This document shows positions 2,632-36,151 of a DNA stretch of 64,000 nucleotides, in pieces. Position 1 is the first letter of the stretch. Every line of letters starts with the position of its first letter. The DNA comes from Candidatus Yanofskybacteria bacterium RIFCSPHIGHO2_01_FULL_41_21 (GTDB lineage: Bacteria; Patescibacteriota; Minisyncoccia; 2-02-FULL-40-12; GWA2-44-9), in NCBI GenBank assembly GCA_001794025.1, contig MGJA01000007.1, forward strand, positions 219 through 64,218. The letters are read 5' to 3'. Under the pieces are notes generated by a model, which was not told the origin of the DNA, searched no databases, and saw only the letters and a list, made by a program, of their open reading frames with translations. A program made the position numbers and the translations under genes.

Positions 2632-4836
2632 ATGGACCTATCTCTTCCGATTGAGAAATTAAAGAATGTCGGTGCCCGCAATCTTCCCCGCCTTCATAAG
2701 TTGGGCATTAAAACCCTCCGAGATTTGTTGTGGCATATCCCCGCTCGCTATGAGGATTACAGCCAGATTATTCCTATCGCCGACTTGGTCCCCGATCAAA
2801 AAGCTACCGTTCAAGGCACCGTTGTCAAAATTAGTAGTCGACGTATCTTTCCCAGACGGTTAGTAATCATTGAGGCCATCATTGAAGACGATTCGGATAC
2901 AATTAAAGCCGTTTGGTTTAACCAACCCTACATCGCTACCACACTAGTTGAGGGCACCCGCGTTAGCTTGGCCGGAACCGTTAAACTTGATAAGCGTGGA
3001 CTATATCTGGCCAGTCCCAGCTATGAAAAGCTCCACACCGACGATTATTTCGCCTATCACCTCACTCACACCCATGGCCTTATCCCTGTTTATCCTGAAA
3101 CCGAGGGTGTCAGTTCAAAGTATCTAAGATTTTTAATTAAGCCCATTATTTCCGAGTTAGTTATTGAGGATCATCTATCCGAAGAATCCCGAATGCGGAA
3201 TGGCCTCATTGACCTAACCACTGCCCTGCAAAAAATTCATTATCCCCTCACTCTGGCCGAAGCCGAACAGGCCAAAGAACGCCTCGCCTTTGACGATTTG
3301 CTGTTATTCCAAATTAAAGCCCTCCTTGAACGAAGAAAAATAAACCAGCTCAAATCTCCCGCTATCCCGTTTGATAAGGAACTAGTCACCGACTTTATCA
3401 GACATCTTCCTTTTGAATTAACCAAAGATCAAAAAATAGCGGCTTGGGAAATATTAAAAGACCTTGAAAGGCCCTACCCCATGAATCGGCTTATGGAGGG
3501 AGATGTCGGTTCCGGCAAAACCGTCGTCGCTTTAATTGCCGCCATTCAAACCGCCCAGGATGGTTATCAAACCGTTTTCATGGCCCCGACCGAAGTCCTT
3601 GCCCACCAACATATGGAAACAATTCGCAAGCTTGTCGCTCATACCAATATTGAAGTTGGATTATTGACGAGTTCTACCGCTTGGACCACTTATAGCTTGG
3701 GCAAGAAGCCGGAAATTAAAAAACGCATTGCCCGAGGCGACACTAAAATAATCATTGGAACCCATGCCATCTTACAAAAAGACGTTGAGTTCAATAACCT
3801 TGCCCTGGTTGTCATTGATGAACAACATCGCTTTGGTGTCGCCCAACGCGCCGCCCTTGTCAAAAATAAGGAACTTGTTCCCCATTTGTTATCAATGACT
3901 GCTACACCCATCCCCCGCACTCTCGCCCTCACCATCTATGGCGACTTGGATATTTCTATCATTAAAGAAAAACCAAAGAATCGCCAAAAAATTATCACCC
4001 GCATTGTCCCCCCTTCCGGCCGACAGGAGGCCCATCAATTTATTCGTTCAGAAGCAAAAGCGAGCCGACAAGTTTTTGTCATCTGCCCGCGCATAGAGGT
4101 GAGTACTGTGACAGCAACTGGAACCTTACCCTTAAGCCCCAGTAGCGGAGGGGGTCCCTCTGGGGGAACCGCCGGGACTGGTTCCCCGGGTCTGGGGCGA
4201 GAGGGTAAGGTTTCAGTTGCCAAGCAACAAAAACTTGCTTTAGCTCAAGATATGAAAGCGGTCCAGGAGGAATACAAAAAACTATCCGAATTGGTATTCC
4301 CAGATTTAAAAGTAGGTATGCTTCACGGCAAAATGAAACCGAAAGAAAAAACGGAAATCATGAATCGTTTCAAAGAGGGTTTTACCGACATTCTCGTTTC
4401 CACATCCGTCATTGAAGTCGGCATAGATATTCCTAACGCCACCGTGATGATGATTGAAAACGCCGACCACTTCGGTCTCGCCCAACTTCATCAATTCCGA
4501 GGACGCATCGGTCGGGGCGAACATCAATCAACCTGTCTTTTGTTTACTTCCGGCGCCGAAAAAACAAGCAACCAACGATTGAAAGCTCTTGTCACAACTG
4601 ATGACGGCTTCCTTCTTGCTGAAAAAGACATGGCCATCCGCGGACCCGGCGAATTCTTCGGCACTGGCCAATCCGGCCTCCCTGACCTGGCAATGGCTGC
4701 TCTCGCCAACGTTGAACTAATTAAAAAGTCCCGCGCTGAAGCACGACTTATTCTCACCGAAGATCAGAACTTAACCAATCACCCCGAACTAAAACAACAA
4801 CTATTGAGATTCCAATCCATTATTCATTTTGAGTAA
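2632..4836 (+). CDS. recG: ATP-dependent DNA helicase RecG
   Basis: RecG wedge/N-terminal domain plus helicase motifs (GDVGSGKT, DEQHRFG, QLHQFRGRIGRG). It carries a GC-rich low-complexity insertion (GGGPSGGTAGTGSPGLG). Confidence 0.9.
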   Translation: MDLSLPIEKLKNVGARNLPRLHKLGIKTLRDLLWHIPARYEDYSQIIPIADLVPDQKATVQGTVVKISSRRIFPRRLVIIEAIIEDDSDTIKAVWFNQPYIATTLVEGTRVSLAGTVKLDKRGLYLASPSYEKLHTDDYFAYHLTHTHGLIPVYPETEGVSSKYLRFLIKPIISELVIEDHLSEESRMRNGLIDLTTALQKIHYPLTLAEAEQAKERLAFDDLLLFQIKALLERRKINQLKSPAIPFDKELVTDFIRHLPFELTKDQKIAAWEILKDLERPYPMNRLMEGDVGSGKTVVALIAAIQTAQDGYQTVFMAPTEVLAHQHMETIRKLVAHTNIEVGLLTSSTAWTTYSLGKKPEIKKRIARGDTKIIIGTHAILQKDVEFNNLALVVIDEQHRFGVAQRAALVKNKELVPHLLSMTATPIPRTLALTIYGDLDISIIKEKPKNRQKIITRIVPPSGRQEAHQFIRSEAKASRQVFVICPRIEVSTVTATGTLPLSPSSGGGPSGGTAGTGSPGLGREGKVSVAKQQKLALAQDMKAVQEEYKKLSELVFPDLKVGMLHGKMKPKEKTEIMNRFKEGFTDILVSTSVIEVGIDIPNATVMMIENADHFGLAQLHQFRGRIGRGEHQSTCLLFTSGAEKTSNQRLKALVTTDDGFLLAEKDMAIRGPGEFFGTGQSGLPDLAMAALANVELIKKSRAEARLILTEDQNLTNHPELKQQLLRFQSIIHFE

Positions 4837-5102
4837 AAGAAAAGGCCTCGACACAGGAGGCGTCACGCCATGCGTGAGACCTTCCCTGTCGAGACCTTAG
4901 AACCGAACTGGTTGTTGCTTGGGGCGGCAGCCAGTGATGGTCGAGCCGTTGCGCCGACGAAGCTTCTTCAACAAACGCCGGAAAAATCCCTCTCTCTTTT
5001 TCTTCATGCCTGTGTCCTCCTAATCATCCAATTATAACACGAAACATAGATATCTGTCAAATTTTCGGTTTTTTATCGGTCCTAAGTTCTAATTCCTAAG
5101 TC

Positions 5103-6728
5103 CTACTTTCTGCCTTTCGGTGTTACCCAGAAACCCATATACCGACCAAACATGAGACGGGTTTGGGCATCTAGGGCGGGAATGGCGCCAAAGAAAATAA
5201 AGTTGATGGGGAACAAAAGCCATTGAAGGGCCATCCAGAGCCATTTAAACCGGCCGTATTGAGGCGGTTTTTCGGGAAGTAAAATAACACTCATAATCGC
5301 CGAGGTTACGAGACCAAGCAGGGCGATGTTCATAATAGCACTGGTGATACGAGGTAAGTTATAAGAAAGAATTGATGTCGTAAAAGTTAGTCCCCCGACC
5401 CAAAGAGGAAGCCAGCTCAATAAAAAGATTATTAAAGCATTGGTTGGACTGGAATGAGTGCGTTCAACCTGAATAAGTGTTTGATGCCATTTTTGACTGG
5501 AAGGAATTTTTTTGTTCTTAATGAATCCAAACATGAAGTAAGGATTATTTTCGGCGCCATAATGCCAACGACGAATCTGTTTATATTGATTTTTTAGAGT
5601 TTGCCAGAAAGTCGGACCGACATTAGCATCCATATAGACGGGATAATACATGGGAACGGTCTGCCAGTCGCCGTCATAACGCAAGAGGCATTGCCAATAA
5701 ATACGCGAGTCCTCACTAACGACATTCTTTTGCCAGAAACCGACATCAACCAAGGCCTGAAACCCAACTGAATGAGAAGAAAAAGTAACCATCTGCTCTT
5801 TACGGGACTGCTGAATCATTTGCCAGAATGTGGTTGAGAATGCAAAAACCCGAGCAAAAGCCGGGGCTTCCCAAATATTATTGGTAAAGATTGGAATGGG
5901 CTGGAATGAAGAATGCAACGGATCCGGTGCTGTCAAATAGTACCAAGATAAGCAAGCAAAGAAATCAGCCGGCACGACGGTATCAATATCAAAAACCGAA
6001 ACAATAATTCGGTCATAAGGAATGTTCAGTATATCAATGATTTCCCTTTTAACCTGTTCCCCCGCCCAGGCCTCATTTGATCCTTTTCCTGCTAATTCTC
6101 CGGTGATATTATCGGGATGGGTCGTGACGATAAATTTAAAAAAGGCATTACCAAACTCCGCTTCGGCCTGACGGGCCAATTCAACACTATGCACACCGGC
6201 CCGAGCTTCAGTCGCCAAAACCACAATCATTTTATCTTTAGGATAGTTGCTTTTAAAAATTGCATTTAAACTATCGCGGACGATGGAATATGGCTCTTTG
6301 TATGCCGGCAAAATAATGAGATTGAAAATGTTTTCCGCGCCAATTCCTTGTAACTTTGGATTTTCAGGAACAGAAGCGAGTCGATTAGTCCAATCAACCT
6401 TCAAATTGTGCCTCATTTTTAAAAATGATGACCGAGTCAAGACAGAAAGATAAATGGTCTTAATGAGCCAATAGATATCAAAAAGGATAATAAAAAAAGT
6501 GGCAAAGACCGGTGCTTTAAAAGAAACGAGAACAACCACCGCTAAAGTAGACCAGGCCAAAAAACCTGGAAAAACTTCCAATATTCTATACAACCGGCGG
6601 TCATGCGGATCCGCCAAGTCAAAAGCATTACCAACATGAAGATAATCAAGCATCCAGGTAGTAGATCTCCCGAAGTTTAAAAATCGCCCAGGCAGTCGGG
6701 AGTTCACTACCTGGTTCAGAGTGATCAT
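5103..6728 (-). CDS. family 2 glycosyltransferase, membrane-bound (processive beta-glycosyltransferase-like)
   Basis: A GT2 catalytic core is flanked by multiple TM helices. The overall size and layout resemble cellulose-synthase-like GT2 enzymes. Confidence 0.7.
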   Translation of the reverse strand: MITLNQVVNSRLPGRFLNFGRSTTWMLDYLHVGNAFDLADPHDRRLYRILEVFPGFLAWSTLAVVVLVSFKAPVFATFFIILFDIYWLIKTIYLSVLTRSSFLKMRHNLKVDWTNRLASVPENPKLQGIGAENIFNLIILPAYKEPYSIVRDSLNAIFKSNYPKDKMIVVLATEARAGVHSVELARQAEAEFGNAFFKFIVTTHPDNITGELAGKGSNEAWAGEQVKREIIDILNIPYDRIIVSVFDIDTVVPADFFACLSWYYLTAPDPLHSSFQPIPIFTNNIWEAPAFARVFAFSTTFWQMIQQSRKEQMVTFSSHSVGFQALVDVGFWQKNVVSEDSRIYWQCLLRYDGDWQTVPMYYPVYMDANVGPTFWQTLKNQYKQIRRWHYGAENNPYFMFGFIKNKKIPSSQKWHQTLIQVERTHSSPTNALIIFLLSWLPLWVGGLTFTTSILSYNLPRITSAIMNIALLGLVTSAIMSVILLPEKPPQYGRFKWLWMALQWLLFPINFIFFGAIPALDAQTRLMFGRYMGFWVTPKGRK

Positions 6729-6741
6729 TAAACCACAAAAA

Positions 6742-7734
6742 CTAACTTAAAGCAAGCATAAACAAACCGTCTTCCAAATCACGTTTGCCCTGTTTTGTCC
6801 CCTGTTCAAGGTCAAGTATTTCTTGATAGAGACGCTTAATATCAATTAAAGAAAGACGAGCCGTTGCGGAAAGCATTTTCTTGACCACGAAAGGATGGAT
6901 GCCGGCTTTTTGAGCAATTTGGGCTGAAGAAATGTTTCTATCGGCAAAATCTTTAACCATGAGCATATTACGAAATTGGTACATTACCATTGAAAGAAGG
7001 TAGTACGGATCACGACCATGGGCAAGTTCACCACAGAGTAATGAAAAGGCCTGGGCCTTACGACCAGACCCGAGAGCATCAATAAATTCAAAAACATTTG
7101 GCTCGGTCTCGGTTTTGATTAGAAGGTCTATATCTGCAATTGAAATAGTGTTCTTGGAGTAATTAGCCAATTTATTAAGATTGTGAATCCTAGCCCAACT
7201 ATCCATTCCACCAATCGCTATAAACCTTGCCAATGCCCCTGATGCAAATGATACTCCTAGAGTAGCAACTTCTTTTTTAATCCAGGCCTGCAATTGAGCC
7301 CCTTCAAGATTTGTAAAATTACGAATTAGATTTTTTGAGTCAGAAAGAAATGCTAATAATTCTTTCGGTCTGGCTTGAGTAACAGTCCCTGAATGGGTGG
7401 CTAGGATTACAATCTCTTTACTGGTAGCGATTTTGTGTTTTGTAAAAAGTTCATGTAAATCCTTCGCCGTCTGTAAATTGCTAAAGATATTATTAATAAG
7501 AATAAGTTTTACTTCGTCAAAAAGTGAAACACTTTTGATTGCTTCCGTCACTTGAGCTATCACCGATGGTAATGCGCCCCGCCCGACTGAAGGACTCCAG
7601 TCGTTCGGGCAGGCATCAATACGAAAAAAATTAAAACCACTACCATGTTTGGCTTTATAGCTCTTAATTACGGACTCACGGTTTTCGTATAAGCGAAATG
7701 TGTCATCGCCATAAAGAAAAATAATCATTGCCAA
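6742..7734 (-). CDS. holA: DNA polymerase III delta subunit-like (HolA)
   Basis: The N-terminus (MIIFLYGDDTF...) and ~330-aa length are characteristic of HolA in small-genome bacteria. Confidence 0.6.
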   Translation of the reverse strand: MAMIIFLYGDDTFRLYENRESVIKSYKAKHGSGFNFFRIDACPNDWSPSVGRGALPSVIAQVTEAIKSVSLFDEVKLILINNIFSNLQTAKDLHELFTKHKIATSKEIVILATHSGTVTQARPKELLAFLSDSKNLIRNFTNLEGAQLQAWIKKEVATLGVSFASGALARFIAIGGMDSWARIHNLNKLANYSKNTISIADIDLLIKTETEPNVFEFIDALGSGRKAQAFSLLCGELAHGRDPYYLLSMVMYQFRNMLMVKDFADRNISSAQIAQKAGIHPFVVKKMLSATARLSLIDIKRLYQEILDLEQGTKQGKRDLEDGLFMLALS

Positions 7735-32126: not shown

Positions 32127-34313
32127 ATGGCGGACTTACGGACCCTAAAAATACAATATCTGGAACATTTGGAAATAGAAAAGAATCGATCACCTAAAAC
32201 CCTAGAAAACTATGGGCGCTATCTGGATCGTTTTCTTCAGTTCGCTAAAGTTAATAAAGCAGAAGATCTTGATGACGAACGTATCCGCCAATATCGCTTG
32301 CATTTAAATCGCCTCACCAACAAAGACGGACAACTTCTAATGAAAACAACCCAGAATTATCACATCATTGCCCTTCGTAATTTTCTGAAATATCTAGCCA
32401 AGAGGGGAGTAAAAAGCGTTTCCGCGGAAAAGATTGAATTGGGCCGAGCCGAGGATAGACACGTAACTTTTCTTGAACACACTGAATTGGACCGTCTCCT
32501 AAATGCCCCTGATGGTTCCGGATTAAATGCTTTACGAGATCGGGCTATGCTTCGGATGCTATTCTCAACCGGTATGCGTGTCTCCGAATTATGTTCAATG
32601 GATCGTAATAAGATTGACGTAAAACGAGGTGAACTATCAGTGTTGGGAAAGGGACGAAAAATTCGTTTAGTTTTTCTGTCAGATGACGCCAAAGATCACA
32701 TTGCCCAATACCTCACCAAACGGACTGATGTTGATGAGGCGTTGTTTATTCGCATTCCAAAATCAGGAAAATTTAGCAAGGACTCTGACCTTCGTCTTAC
32801 CCCCCGCTCAATTCAACGTATTGTTCAAAAATATGCCATCAAAGCCGGTATAATGGGTAAACACGTTTCGCCTCATACACTAAGACACTGTCTACATAGG
32901 GAAACTAGAATTTTCCTAAATGACAAAATCTGCTCGGCTTTGACATTGTTTCAGAACAATAATATTTATGTCAAAAGTATGGATTTTAAAAAATCTGTCA
33001 TTGGTGACAAAAAAGTGGTTCAAAAATTCAGTCACCCAGCAACACAACTTCTTCGAATACAAGCTGACGGACATGAGATAATTTGTACTCCCAAACATCG
33101 CCTTTTCACGATAGGAGCAAGTGGAATTGAAGAAATGGAGGCCCAAAATGTCCAGCTCGGAACACACCTCGCCGGTATAAAGGAAATAAAAATGAAAGGT
33201 CATAAATTTTTGAAACCAGAAGTTTGGCGACTTATTGGATATACACTAGGTGATGGAGTAATAAATGAAAGATTTAGGGGAGTTAAGATATATGACAAAG
33301 ATAAATCATTCCTTGAATTTTATAGTAATATTTTTGAAAGAAATTTCGATAAAAAACCTTTTCTAGTAAAAAGAAAGTCCGACTCTTACGAATTAATATT
33401 CTATTCAAAAAAAATGGTTTCTTTTTTAAGGAATTACATCCCGATTGGAACAGCTCCATATAAGCGTATCCCTGCCCAATTATTCCAGGCCACCAATAAG
33501 GAAATTAGACAATTTTTGGCCGGAATATATGATGCTGAGGGTAATAGCGGAACAATCAAGATGTTTTCTTCCAGTAAGGAACTCCTCAAAGATATCCAGA
33601 TGCTCCTAATAAGGCTCGGTATAGATAGTCATATCTTAGAAAGAAAACGGGTAGTAAAGCTTCCACAGGGTAAAATTATTCCCAACATAATATTTACTCT
33701 CCACGTTCTTGATCAAGACAGCCAAAGAAAGTTCAAAAAACAGATTCTCACACTCAAAAAGAATATACTTATTTGTGGTCAAAAAGAAAAAATAGAGCAT
33801 GATAAAATTCCATGCCAACCCATAATTATGAAGCTTTTAGAGTCACTCCGAATACCAGAGGGAAGGGGGTTCCACCAAAGGTTAGAAAAAGAATGCGGCA
33901 TTAAGTATTTTAAGCGTCACACTAAATTAGCACTCACAAAAAATCTTCTTTCAAAAATTCTTGCTGAACTGAAGAAATTTGATAAAGTCGGGAAATTTAA
34001 AGAATTCTATACAATCCTTAACAATATCACACGAAATAAAAATTTAATTTGGTTTCAGGTTAAGAAAATAGACCGTATCATAACTAAAGAACAGCAAGTT
34101 TTTGATTTTGGTATTAAACAAACTCATAATCTAATAACTGACGGATTTATTTCTCACAATTCCTACGCCACTGATTTATTAAGAAATGGTGCTGACATCC
34201 GTTCCGTCCAAGCCATGCTCGGACATTCCTCGGTCACCACCACCCAAATCTACACCCACGTCACTGATACCCAACTTCGGGAAATCCACAAAAAGTTTCA
34301 TGATAAGAAATAG
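32127..34313 (+). CDS. tyrosine recombinase XerC/XerD family, interrupted by a 424-aa intein
   Basis: Xer N-terminal core-binding domain. The catalytic region HTLRH|(intein)|[34 protein letters not shown] is restored by precise excision. Confidence 0.85.
32889..34160 (+). mobile_element. intein with LAGLIDADG homing-endonuclease domain inside the Xer recombinase
   Basis: Starts CLHRETRIF (block A) and ends ...GFISHN|S (block G). Two LAGLIDADG motifs are present (LIGYTLGDG and [10 protein letters not shown]). The intein DNA is more AT-rich than the exteins. Confidence 0.75.
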
Positions 34314-34759: not shown

Positions 34760-35443
34760 CTAGGTTGTCTTGACGTCGAAGTTTGCGACATCAAATGAAT
34801 CATCTATGGATTGGGGTCGGGAAGTGATTTGATACACGCAAACAGAAAGGTTTGAGCCATCCAATCGCATGTTTTTGTGCCGTACAGTAAACTCATATTG
34901 AGTTGGATCGAGCCCAAGATCAGAGAATTCCTGCTTATTGCTCGCTAACTTTTTGATCAGCCTACGAGTCAATTTGAACACACGTCGCGGTCCCTCTTTA
35001 AACTGGTAGGTTTTTATAAGTTCGGGATGAGCTTCATAAACCGCCCAGATGACACTAATGTGGAACACATAGATCTCCTGTATGTGTCCAACTAGGAACT
35101 GCCGAAGCAAACGTTTGGTCTTGCCGACCCGCATCGGCAAGTTATAATATTTACCTCTTAACCATCGACGGTTCTGATAGAACACAATTGCGTATTCACG
35201 GTCAAACTTCTCCAAGTCATCGTGGTGTTGTTGAAGCTGAATTTCTCGAATAATTGCCCCCCACTCAATCCAGATGTTTTGACCTCAGTAAACATATGGC
35301 GCCGAGCATGATAGAGATCGCCGCCCAAATGATTTGAAGCAGTTGGTTTGCCAGAACATACTTTCTGTGCGACATCGACACCAAATTGTCCGATAACGGT
35401 CAGTCGTCCATTCCACGTCCGACGAAAACTTTTCTTGGCCATG
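34760..35443 (-). pseudogene. hypothetical gene apparently split by a frameshift (ORFs 35158-35443 and 34760-35215 overlap out of frame)
   Basis: The two minus-strand ORFs overlap by ~58 nt in different frames. The downstream ORF needs a TTG start. No family recognised. Confidence 0.25.
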
Positions 35444-35537
35444 TTTTCAAAGACCTCAAACTTGATATAGCATTCATTTACAGCAAAAACAACCCCCCAC
35501 TTTTTAGTTAAAAAGTGGGGGGTTGTTTTTGATATTG

Positions 35538-35621
35538 TGCCCAGGGCCGGACTCGAACCGGCAAGCCCTTGCGGGCAAAGCATTTTAAGTGCTTCGAGGT
35601 TACCAATTTCTCCACCTGGGC
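35538..35621 (-). tRNA. tRNA-Leu (anticodon UAA)
   Basis: Acceptor gcccagg/cctgggc, anticodon arm aagca-ctTAAaa-tgctt, long variable arm, T-loop ggttcgagtcc. Confidence 0.8.
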
Positions 35622-35758
35622 AATTTTAAATTCTGAGGCCATGATGGGACTTGTCATGGCTACGCCAGATCTAGCGAAGCTATGACACCCATGAATAACG
35701 GTTTTGTCCCGCTACGCGGGATCTCCCGAAGGGAGACAGACCACTCACCGAACCTCGG

Positions 35759-35831
35759 AGGTGCAGGCGGGATTTGCACCCGCGGATAGCGGTTTTGCAG
35801 ACCGCCGTGTTAGCTACTTCACCACTGCACC
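35759..35831 (-). tRNA. tRNA-Cys (anticodon GCA)
   Basis: Acceptor ggtgcag/ctgcacc with discriminator U, short D-stem, anticodon arm gcggt-ctGCAaa-accgc. The T-loop (tgcaaat) is atypical. Confidence 0.65.
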
Positions 35832-36068
35832 ATATTTATTTTTCAATATCTCTTTTTGCTGATGATTTTTTAAGAATCTCTCATATTGAACTGCTTCACT
35901 TCTTGTTTCGAAAGAATGTGATTCTAATAATTGCCACGGTCTATATCCTTTTGTCGACCGAACTTCACCGTTGTTATGCCGTGCTAAACGAATACTAACA
36001 TTTTCAGCACTCCCGACATAAAAATCACCATTTTTTTGACTTTTTAAGACATACGTAAAATAGCTCAT
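35814..36068 (-). CDS. GIY-YIG nuclease family protein (small, YhbQ-like)
   Basis: The start is set at MSYFTYVLKSQKNGDFYVGSAENVSIRLARHNNG (GIY-YIG motif). The ORF's last 18 nt read into the 5' end of tRNA-Cys. Confidence 0.65.
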   Translation of the reverse strand: MSYFTYVLKSQKNGDFYVGSAENVSIRLARHNNGEVRSTKGYRPWQLLESHSFETRSEAVQYERFLKNHQQKEILKNKYGAVVK

Positions 36069-36151
36069 ATTTCTTTTGTCTCGCTTCGCGAGATCTGGCG
36101 AAGCCAGACAGACCGCAGCGTTTCCACTTCGCCACAGCACCTTCATTGTGA

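Follow-up and report, generated by a model that had tools for sequence, protein, structure and literature searches.

The xer locus of Candidatus Yanofskybacteria bacterium RIFCSPHIGHO2_01_FULL_41_21 raises the question of how a single open reading frame (ORF) can encode a tyrosine recombinase whose catalytic region is interrupted by 424 amino acids. The ORF lies on the plus strand at 32127..34313 of a 64,000-nucleotide stretch of contig MGJA01000007.1 (hereafter the window, to which all positions refer) and encodes 728 amino acids plus a stop in an uninterrupted frame with profile matches. Its product is 100% identical to a public protein (P0001, Candidatus Yanofskybacteria bacterium RIFCSPHIGHO2_01_FULL) annotated as "hypothetical protein." Our analyses point to a class-1 intein, complete with a two-motif LAGLIDADG homing endonuclease, located in box II of a XerA-like recombinase of this member of the Candidate Phyla Radiation (CPR)/Patescibacteria. 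Comparative data suggest that the element has homed on repeated and recent occasions, both within Yanofskybacteria and elsewhere in the CPR. We place the probability of this explanation as a whole at about 0.88.

A preliminary description of the window had proposed a 424-aa insertion immediately after HTLRH, starting with CLHRET and ending in S-H-N before a Ser, at 32889-34160, and both its coordinates and its details proved exact. The insert comprises aa 255-678 of the precursor (1272 nt, in frame), directly follows HTLRH (aa 250-254; 32874-32888), and runs from CLHRET to FISHN, after which Ser679 resumes the host protein. The N-extein (aa 1-254; 32127..32888) contains a SAM-like core-binding domain and the first part of the catalytic domain, as indicated by Pfam Phage_int_SAM_1, positions 2-135 of the Phage_integrase profile, and alignment with XerD 1A0P. 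It carries Arg I (R151; 32577-32579), the catalytic Lys (K175; 32649-32651), His II (H250), and Arg II (R253). According to the XerD alignment, the C-extein (aa 679-728; 34161..34310) supplies His III (H700; 34224-34226) and the catalytic Tyr (Y709; 34251-34253). This R-K-H-R-H-Y set aligns to that of Escherichia coli XerD (1A0P), for which we assume the established numbering of catalytic residues, and the extein catalytic residues on both sides of the insert are invariant across 41 homologues.

Removal of the insert in silico produced a 304-aa Xer in which box II and the C-terminal catalytic region are continuous across an HTLRH-SYATDLL junction. Alignment of this spliced sequence located the insertion point between the equivalents of XerD H248 and A249, one residue past catalytic Arg II. 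Because Arg I, Lys, His II, and Arg II reside in the N-extein and His III and Tyr in the C-extein, the active site is split in the precursor; the unspliced protein is thus expected to be inactive as a recombinase, and recombinase activity would have to depend on splicing. Over the whole protein, Pfam detected Phage_integrase (127 bits) and the SAM-like N-terminal domain, consistent with a two-domain architecture. Against NCBIfam, the spliced extein scored 232.9 for XerA (NF040815; cut-off, 220), 241 for XerD (cut-off, 329.6), and 240.5 for XerC (cut-off, 335), so that the predicted host protein is XerA-like by NCBI's naming model. Hidden Markov models built from Xer inteins and exteins, run on a six-frame translation of the 64-kb window, matched this ORF alone and revealed no further Xer or intein of the family.

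The proposal that the insert is a full-length intein was borne out by Pfam, NCBIfam, homologue alignment, an AlphaFold2 model, and Foldseek, all of which support a 424-aa class-1 intein (Cys1 to His-Asn; 32889..34160). The insert scored 69 bits for Pfam Intein_splicing PF14890 (cut-off, 35.8), 28.4 for NCBIfam intein_Nterm (TIGR01445; cut-off, 24.5), and 17.5-19.3 for intein_Cterm (TIGR01443; cut-off, 15.6), scores that are far beyond chance. Blocks A, B, F, and G are intact and are followed by a +1 Ser. Among 168 full-length Xer inteins, 410-430 aa in length, Cys1, the block-B His, the block-D Lys, the block-F Asp, and the terminal His-Asn are invariant (168/168). In the window copy, block A (32889..32927) begins with Cys255, the N-terminal nucleophile, and TIGR01445 matched residues 1-74. 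An alignment that could have exposed missing block-B or block-F/G residues instead found the block-B motif TPKH (T321-P-K-H324; 33069..33110), in which the first position is Thr or Ser in 168/168 homologues, and conserved blocks F (D660 and H667; 34095..34142) and G (GFISHN with H677 and N678, then Ser679 as the first C-extein residue; 34143..34163). By its sequence, the insert is a genuine, canonical class-1 intein that is predicted to splice.

Two features of the splicing residues vary within the family. Of 115 intein-bearing homologues, 110 have Ser and 5 have Cys at the +1 position, and each of the 108 intein-less relatives with an identifiable motif has Ser. A Cys in place of Ser (SHN followed by CFA) also appeared in roughly 10% of intein-bearing alleles (L026, L029, L043, L051, L054, L057, L061, and L065), and this Ser-to-Cys change may be an extein alteration driven by the intein. 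Separately, Cys320 (33084-33086; intein residue 66), which directly precedes the block-B Thr, is conserved in 136/168 Xer inteins and could form a disulfide with Cys1 as a redox-controlled splicing switch.

The two LAGLIDADG motifs previously reported are both present with their catalytic acidic residues. The endonuclease core (aa 364-540; 33216..33746), supported by Pfam LAGLIDADG_3, conservation, a predicted local distance difference test (pLDDT) score of about 90, and Foldseek, matched PF14528 at 61 bits in two stretches (cut-off, 22.5). Motif 1 (aa 368-379; 33228-33263) contains D376 within LGDG, and motif 2 (aa 463-474; 33513-33548) contains E471 within YDAEG; across homologues, the motif 1 position is Asp in 165/168 and the motif 2 position is Glu or Asp in 168/168. 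Between the motifs lies the block-D Lys, K391 (33297-33299). Between the core and the C-terminal splicing region, the AlphaFold2 model contains a helical insert of five helices (aa 541-638; 33747..34040). Over the 168 inteins, mean pairwise identity was 0.48 in the endonuclease core, 0.38 in the N-terminal splicing region (Hint-N), and 0.285 in the helical insert, the least conserved part, which is possibly a DNA-binding accessory domain.

The predicted structure of the precursor, modeled from 41 aligned sequences, had a mean pLDDT of 82 overall and about 90 across the intein. In Foldseek searches of the PDB, the intein part best matched TliVMA (7QSS; E, 3e-22), followed by PI-PfuI, PI-TkoII, and PI-SceI, and the endonuclease part matched I-DmoI, I-Tsp061I, PI-PfuI, and the TliVMA intein. 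The extein part matched XerA (5HXY/4A8E) and XerD (1A0P). The closest PDB sequence to the intein was PI-PfuI (1DQ3; E, 4e-9). Sequence and model together predict a Hint fold for the splicing domain.

The intact residues, read with established class-1 intein biochemistry, suggest the following course of events. Cys255 would perform an N-S acyl shift at the His254-Cys255 bond, aided by block-B Thr321 and His324, and Ser679 would attack the resulting thioester in a transesterification. Cyclization of Asn678, aided by His677 and block-F Asp660, and an O-N shift would then join HTLRH to SYATDLL, so that a functional Xer of 304 aa is released along with the 424-aa endonuclease. On comparative grounds, the endonuclease would cut intein-less xer alleles at the DNA encoding the PHTLRH-SYATDLL junction, and repair from an intein-bearing copy would spread the element by homing. 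The DNA for this junction is maintained at first and second codon positions in bacteria and archaea alike.

An empty site is present at the syntenic locus of an intein-less orthologue (P0123, 304 aa; locus L002), whose product and gene are 91% and 76% identical, respectively, to those of the spliced window gene, both genes being 915 nt. The two loci share the gene order PNPase, small ORF, NYN, rpsO, xer, EFTuD2-like ORF, and infB, and the uninterrupted xer site of L002 reads CCTCACACTTTGCGCCAC joined directly to AGCTACGCCACCGATCTTCTC. Since P0123 is of the same length and colinear with the spliced product at a syntenic locus, the insert has been added to an orthologous gene with codon precision, and the earlier claim that its removal restores a canonical Xer catalytic region stands. 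Comparison with Xer sequences of relatives defined the insertion site at H-x-x-R-H before the intein Cys, and no Xer homologue carried a non-intein domain at this position. With the spliced extein as query, the 120 best proteins listed, several from Yanofskybacteria, were 74-93% identical, 303-332 aa long, and without intein domains in their Pfam annotation. Because intein-less proteins alone appeared in this list, from which even P0001 was missing, it gives no unbiased estimate of intein frequency. A possible exception among the 120 is P0185 (332 aa; 83% query coverage), which lies on a contig of 1.2 kb and could be a fragment of a truncated intein-bearing protein.

The histories of intein and host gene are discordant among intein-bearing relatives. 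Compared with the window, P0010 (locus L006) is 91.6% identical in the extein and 59.4% in the intein; P0008 is 70.7% identical in the extein and 80.7% in the intein; and P0020 is 51.4% and 68.9% identical, respectively. At the DNA level, the window and L006 share 77-87% of positions across the exteins and the genes upstream of xer; this value falls to 55-65% exactly over 32894-34087 and returns to 82% in the C-extein. This mosaic confined to the intein argues for independent invasion or replacement by homing, which vertical descent with loss does not explain. Together with the empty sites in the listed close relatives, the discordance supports the Xer intein as a mobile element, and it lends indirect support to the suggestion in the preliminary description that homing is active or recently was.

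The architecture is widespread. A search with the full protein recovered at least 249 clusters (90% identity) with identical architecture and site, 705-770 aa in length, from Yanofsky-, Kaiser-, Azam-, Wolfe-, Brenner-, and Woesebacteria, candidate division Kazan, and others. Screening a single genome for each GTDB species yielded 66 loci; wherever the locus was sufficiently complete, the intein starts with Cys after H-x-x-R-H and ends in S-H-N before S/C-F/Y-A. None of the 168 copies was a mini-intein or had a visibly decayed endonuclease. The intein had been described as visibly more AT-rich than its flanks, and its guanine-cytosine (GC) content is indeed 0.336, compared with 0.420 and 0.464 in the exteins and 0.427 in the window. 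The bias is family-wide, however, as the intein is more AT-rich than its own extein in 56/60 loci, by 7 points on average and 11 at third codon positions, and the bias partly tracks host GC. We therefore rejected AT-richness as a sign of recent import.

The family also extends to archaea. Nine GTDB loci have short XerA-type exteins, eight of them labeled Nano-, Woese-, or Pacearchaeota or "archaeon" and one, L032, labeled Chloroflexi; we treated L032 as archaeal since its extein groups with the archaeal XerA set, and its label or bin is probably wrong. The contig of L033 encodes L18e (97.9; cut-off, 85), archaeal/eukaryotic-type L13 (113; cut-off, 98.9), and archaeal-type S9 beside the xer gene, ribosomal proteins that mark this locus as truly archaeal. 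Mean extein identity was 32% between archaea and bacteria and 56% within bacteria, and mean intein identity was 41% between the domains and 42% among bacteria. Archaeal exteins formed a single bipartition in 100/100 neighbor-joining bootstraps, and archaeal inteins did so in 0/100, splitting into three to five groups in every bootstrap. These results favor at least one inter-domain transfer of the Xer intein, with a probable crossing to the XerA of DPANN archaea. Given three to five archaeal groups and no mixed archaeal-bacterial clade above 53% bootstrap, we set aside any estimate of the number of transfers and claim no direction. We likewise rejected a spread beyond the CPR through records labeled Gammaproteobacteria, Pseudomonadales, or Nevskiaceae (L015, L018, L019, L025, L035, L059, and L068). 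Their exteins are 75-91% identical to Xer of Microgenomates/Woesebacteria, so that the titles are probably wrong or the contigs misbinned.

A further crossing probably led to a virus-like element. Locus L069 (IMG/VR UViG_3300025015_000021; 93.9 kb, of which 11 kb was examined) carries a Xer intein gene at 4266-6425, flanked by genes for a replication initiator, a DnaB/RadA-like ATPase, an HNH-like protein, and a DNA methyltransferase. Its recombinase is divergent, with an extein at most 49% identical to any in our set, and the intein occupies the identical site and is 53-54% identical to CPR inteins. This putatively viral contig may represent a vehicle for intein spread. We tentatively extend these observations to a broader hypothesis, which we regard as possible and somewhat short of an even chance: a single intein lineage specialized for the HxLRH-S junction of Xer/XerA would circulate horizontally among CPR bacteria, DPANN archaea, and their viruses or plasmids as a trans-domain selfish element, its endonuclease kept intact everywhere, possibly because splicing also switches a chromosome-dimer resolvase. 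If true, the circulating Xer intein would mark gene flow between two groups of ultra-small episymbionts.

Several points weigh against a class-1 intein that homes among these lineages and has crossed between domains. Splicing and cleavage by the endonuclease are predictions from sequence; block-F His667, a His in this copy, is His in only 70/168 family members; and because AT-richness is family-wide, it says nothing about when the window copy arrived. A simple homing cycle predicts degenerate and mini forms, yet the 168 Xer inteins include none. Deep intein relationships are poorly resolved, as the 53% ceiling for mixed clades indicates, and among all distant pairs the identity of the inteins levels off near 0.40, so that saturation could partly account for the inter-domain transfer signal.

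The alternatives nearest to a homing intein keep its splicing function. The element could be a vertical passenger that splices and no longer homes in this lineage, its patchiness reflecting repeated precise losses. Roughly equal intein and extein identities for P0002 (82/82%) and L003 (71/72%), the shared AT-richness of the family, and an endonuclease activity that is predicted from sequence are all compatible with such a passenger. Loss alone, however, cannot yield a 59% identical intein in a 92% identical extein or an 81% identical intein in a 71% identical extein. It also leaves the sharp drop in DNA identity limited to the intein unexplained, and the endonuclease core and its catalytic residues are strongly constrained across all 168 copies; we therefore consider a passenger improbable. 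A shade less probable again is a domesticated intein in which splicing conditional on redox, temperature, or DNA damage gates Xer and the endonuclease domain is kept for DNA binding or another host function. The split active site that must silence the unspliced precursor, the universal lack of mini-inteins and decayed endonucleases, and the conserved Cys320 that could pair with Cys1 would all fit such a regulatory role. Conditional splicing is also documented for other DNA-metabolism inteins such as RadA, as cited in a passage of 10.1101/2024.01.08.574615. Against regulation, most close relatives among the matches listed do without the intein, the family moves horizontally, and conditionality is seen in none of the present data.

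Two other explanations would deny that the insert is a functional intein in its own host. A non-splicing Hint/LAGLIDADG domain or a disrupted pseudogene is a formal possibility that nothing specific favors, and we judge it very improbable: the frame is unbroken, and the invariance of the splicing residues in 168 copies and of the extein catalytic residues on both sides argues that this is not a dead gene. An assembly or binning chimera of a Xer gene and an unrelated intein might be suspected because the source is a metagenome-assembled genome. The same architecture nevertheless recurs at the identical codon in at least 249 clusters and in 66 independent assemblies from many studies, and the flanks are syntenic with those of relatives. 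Identical insertions in independent assemblies already refute a chimera, to which we assign a negligible chance. The evidence thus continues to favor a homing-competent class-1 intein in xer.

Relative to known inteins, the Xer elements form a group of their own. When the intein alone was searched against 1.84 billion representative proteins, Xer inteins emerged as a distinct top group of 29 clusters (50% identity; E, <1e-30), with scores dropping from about 145 bits to 126 bits and below for other inteins. The next matches were inteins of archaeal MCM, RadA, aRF1, and radical-SAM proteins, which are also of the LAGLIDADG_3 type and similar over their full length at 24-31% identity but differ in host and insertion site. 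The best fold matches, PI-PfuI (the ribonucleotide reductase intein of Pyrococcus furiosus; 1DQ3) and TliVMA/PhoVMA (7QSS and 7QST), at E values of 3e-22 to 1e-19, share a Hint domain broken by a two-motif LAGLIDADG endonuclease and class-1 chemistry. In contrast to the Xer intein, they reside in ribonucleotide reductase and V-ATPase, are only about 18% identical in structural alignment, and have a different helical insert after the endonuclease core. PI-SceI, the yeast VMA1 intein (fold matched as 1VDE/1LWS), is likewise a bifunctional splicing and homing element with a LAGLIDADG endonuclease, but it resides in a eukaryote, is about 11% identical, and recognizes DNA through a region of its own. 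The RecA and DnaB inteins of Mycobacterium also interrupt conserved catalytic motifs of recombination or replication enzymes, although their host families differ from Xer. Novikova et al. 2016 (PMC4760082) describe such placement as a general rule. Xer is a sensible host, since inteins favor catalytic motifs of DNA-metabolism enzymes. Engineered split-intein versions of phiC31 integrase and Cre (PMC6868429 and PMC3973285) make recombinase activity similarly dependent on splicing; those constructs use artificial trans-splicing, whereas the Xer element would be a natural cis-splicing intein in a tyrosine recombinase.

The remark that Xer is an unusual intein host holds for the literature but not for the databases. 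Full-text literature searches, with subscription journals and InBase outside their scope, returned no natural intein in a Xer or other tyrosine recombinase, and what they matched were recombinases engineered with split inteins or papers that name both subjects without connection. Integrase, Xer, and tyrosine recombinase go unmentioned in the text of the 2016 intein census (PMC4760082). In contrast, public databases hold hundreds of such proteins, some named "site-specific recombinase XerD/intein/homing endonuclease" by JGI automatic annotation. The element is thus canonical and mechanistically no new kind, in a host and insertion site that appear to be undescribed and with sequences that are already public.

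These results would add Xer/XerA tyrosine recombinases to the natural intein hosts. The interest is moderate and resides in the distribution over CPR bacteria, DPANN archaea, and a virus-like contig and in the universally intact endonuclease. A large family with an always full-length endonuclease, exchanged between close relatives and common to the CPR and DPANN, could serve as a convenient marker of DNA exchange among uncultivated ultra-small organisms. Xer inteins could also supply new LAGLIDADG endonucleases and self-splicing modules, and they would provide a natural precedent for the engineered intein-gated recombinases of synthetic biology.

The surroundings of xer also differ between relatives. 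Rfam detected no structured RNA at the xer locus, its matches in the window being seven tRNAs only. Between the EFTuD2-like ORF and infB, the window contains a block (34760-36150) without a counterpart in the syntenic intein-less locus L002. This block includes a 151-aa ORF on the minus strand (34760-35215), tRNA-Leu(taa) (35537-35621), tRNA-Cys(gca) (35757-35831), and, overlapping the end of the latter, a minus-strand GIY-YIG nuclease ORF (35814-36146; Pfam, 54 bits), and it may be a small mobile insertion. In L006, a region at 4480-7225 has a 352-aa ORF directly after the xer stop and, further downstream, a 209-aa homologue of the 151-aa ORF of the window and a 130-aa ORF with a LAGLIDADG-type motif, FFDGDGSVY. 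The region downstream of xer seems to be a hot spot for mobile genes of the nuclease type.

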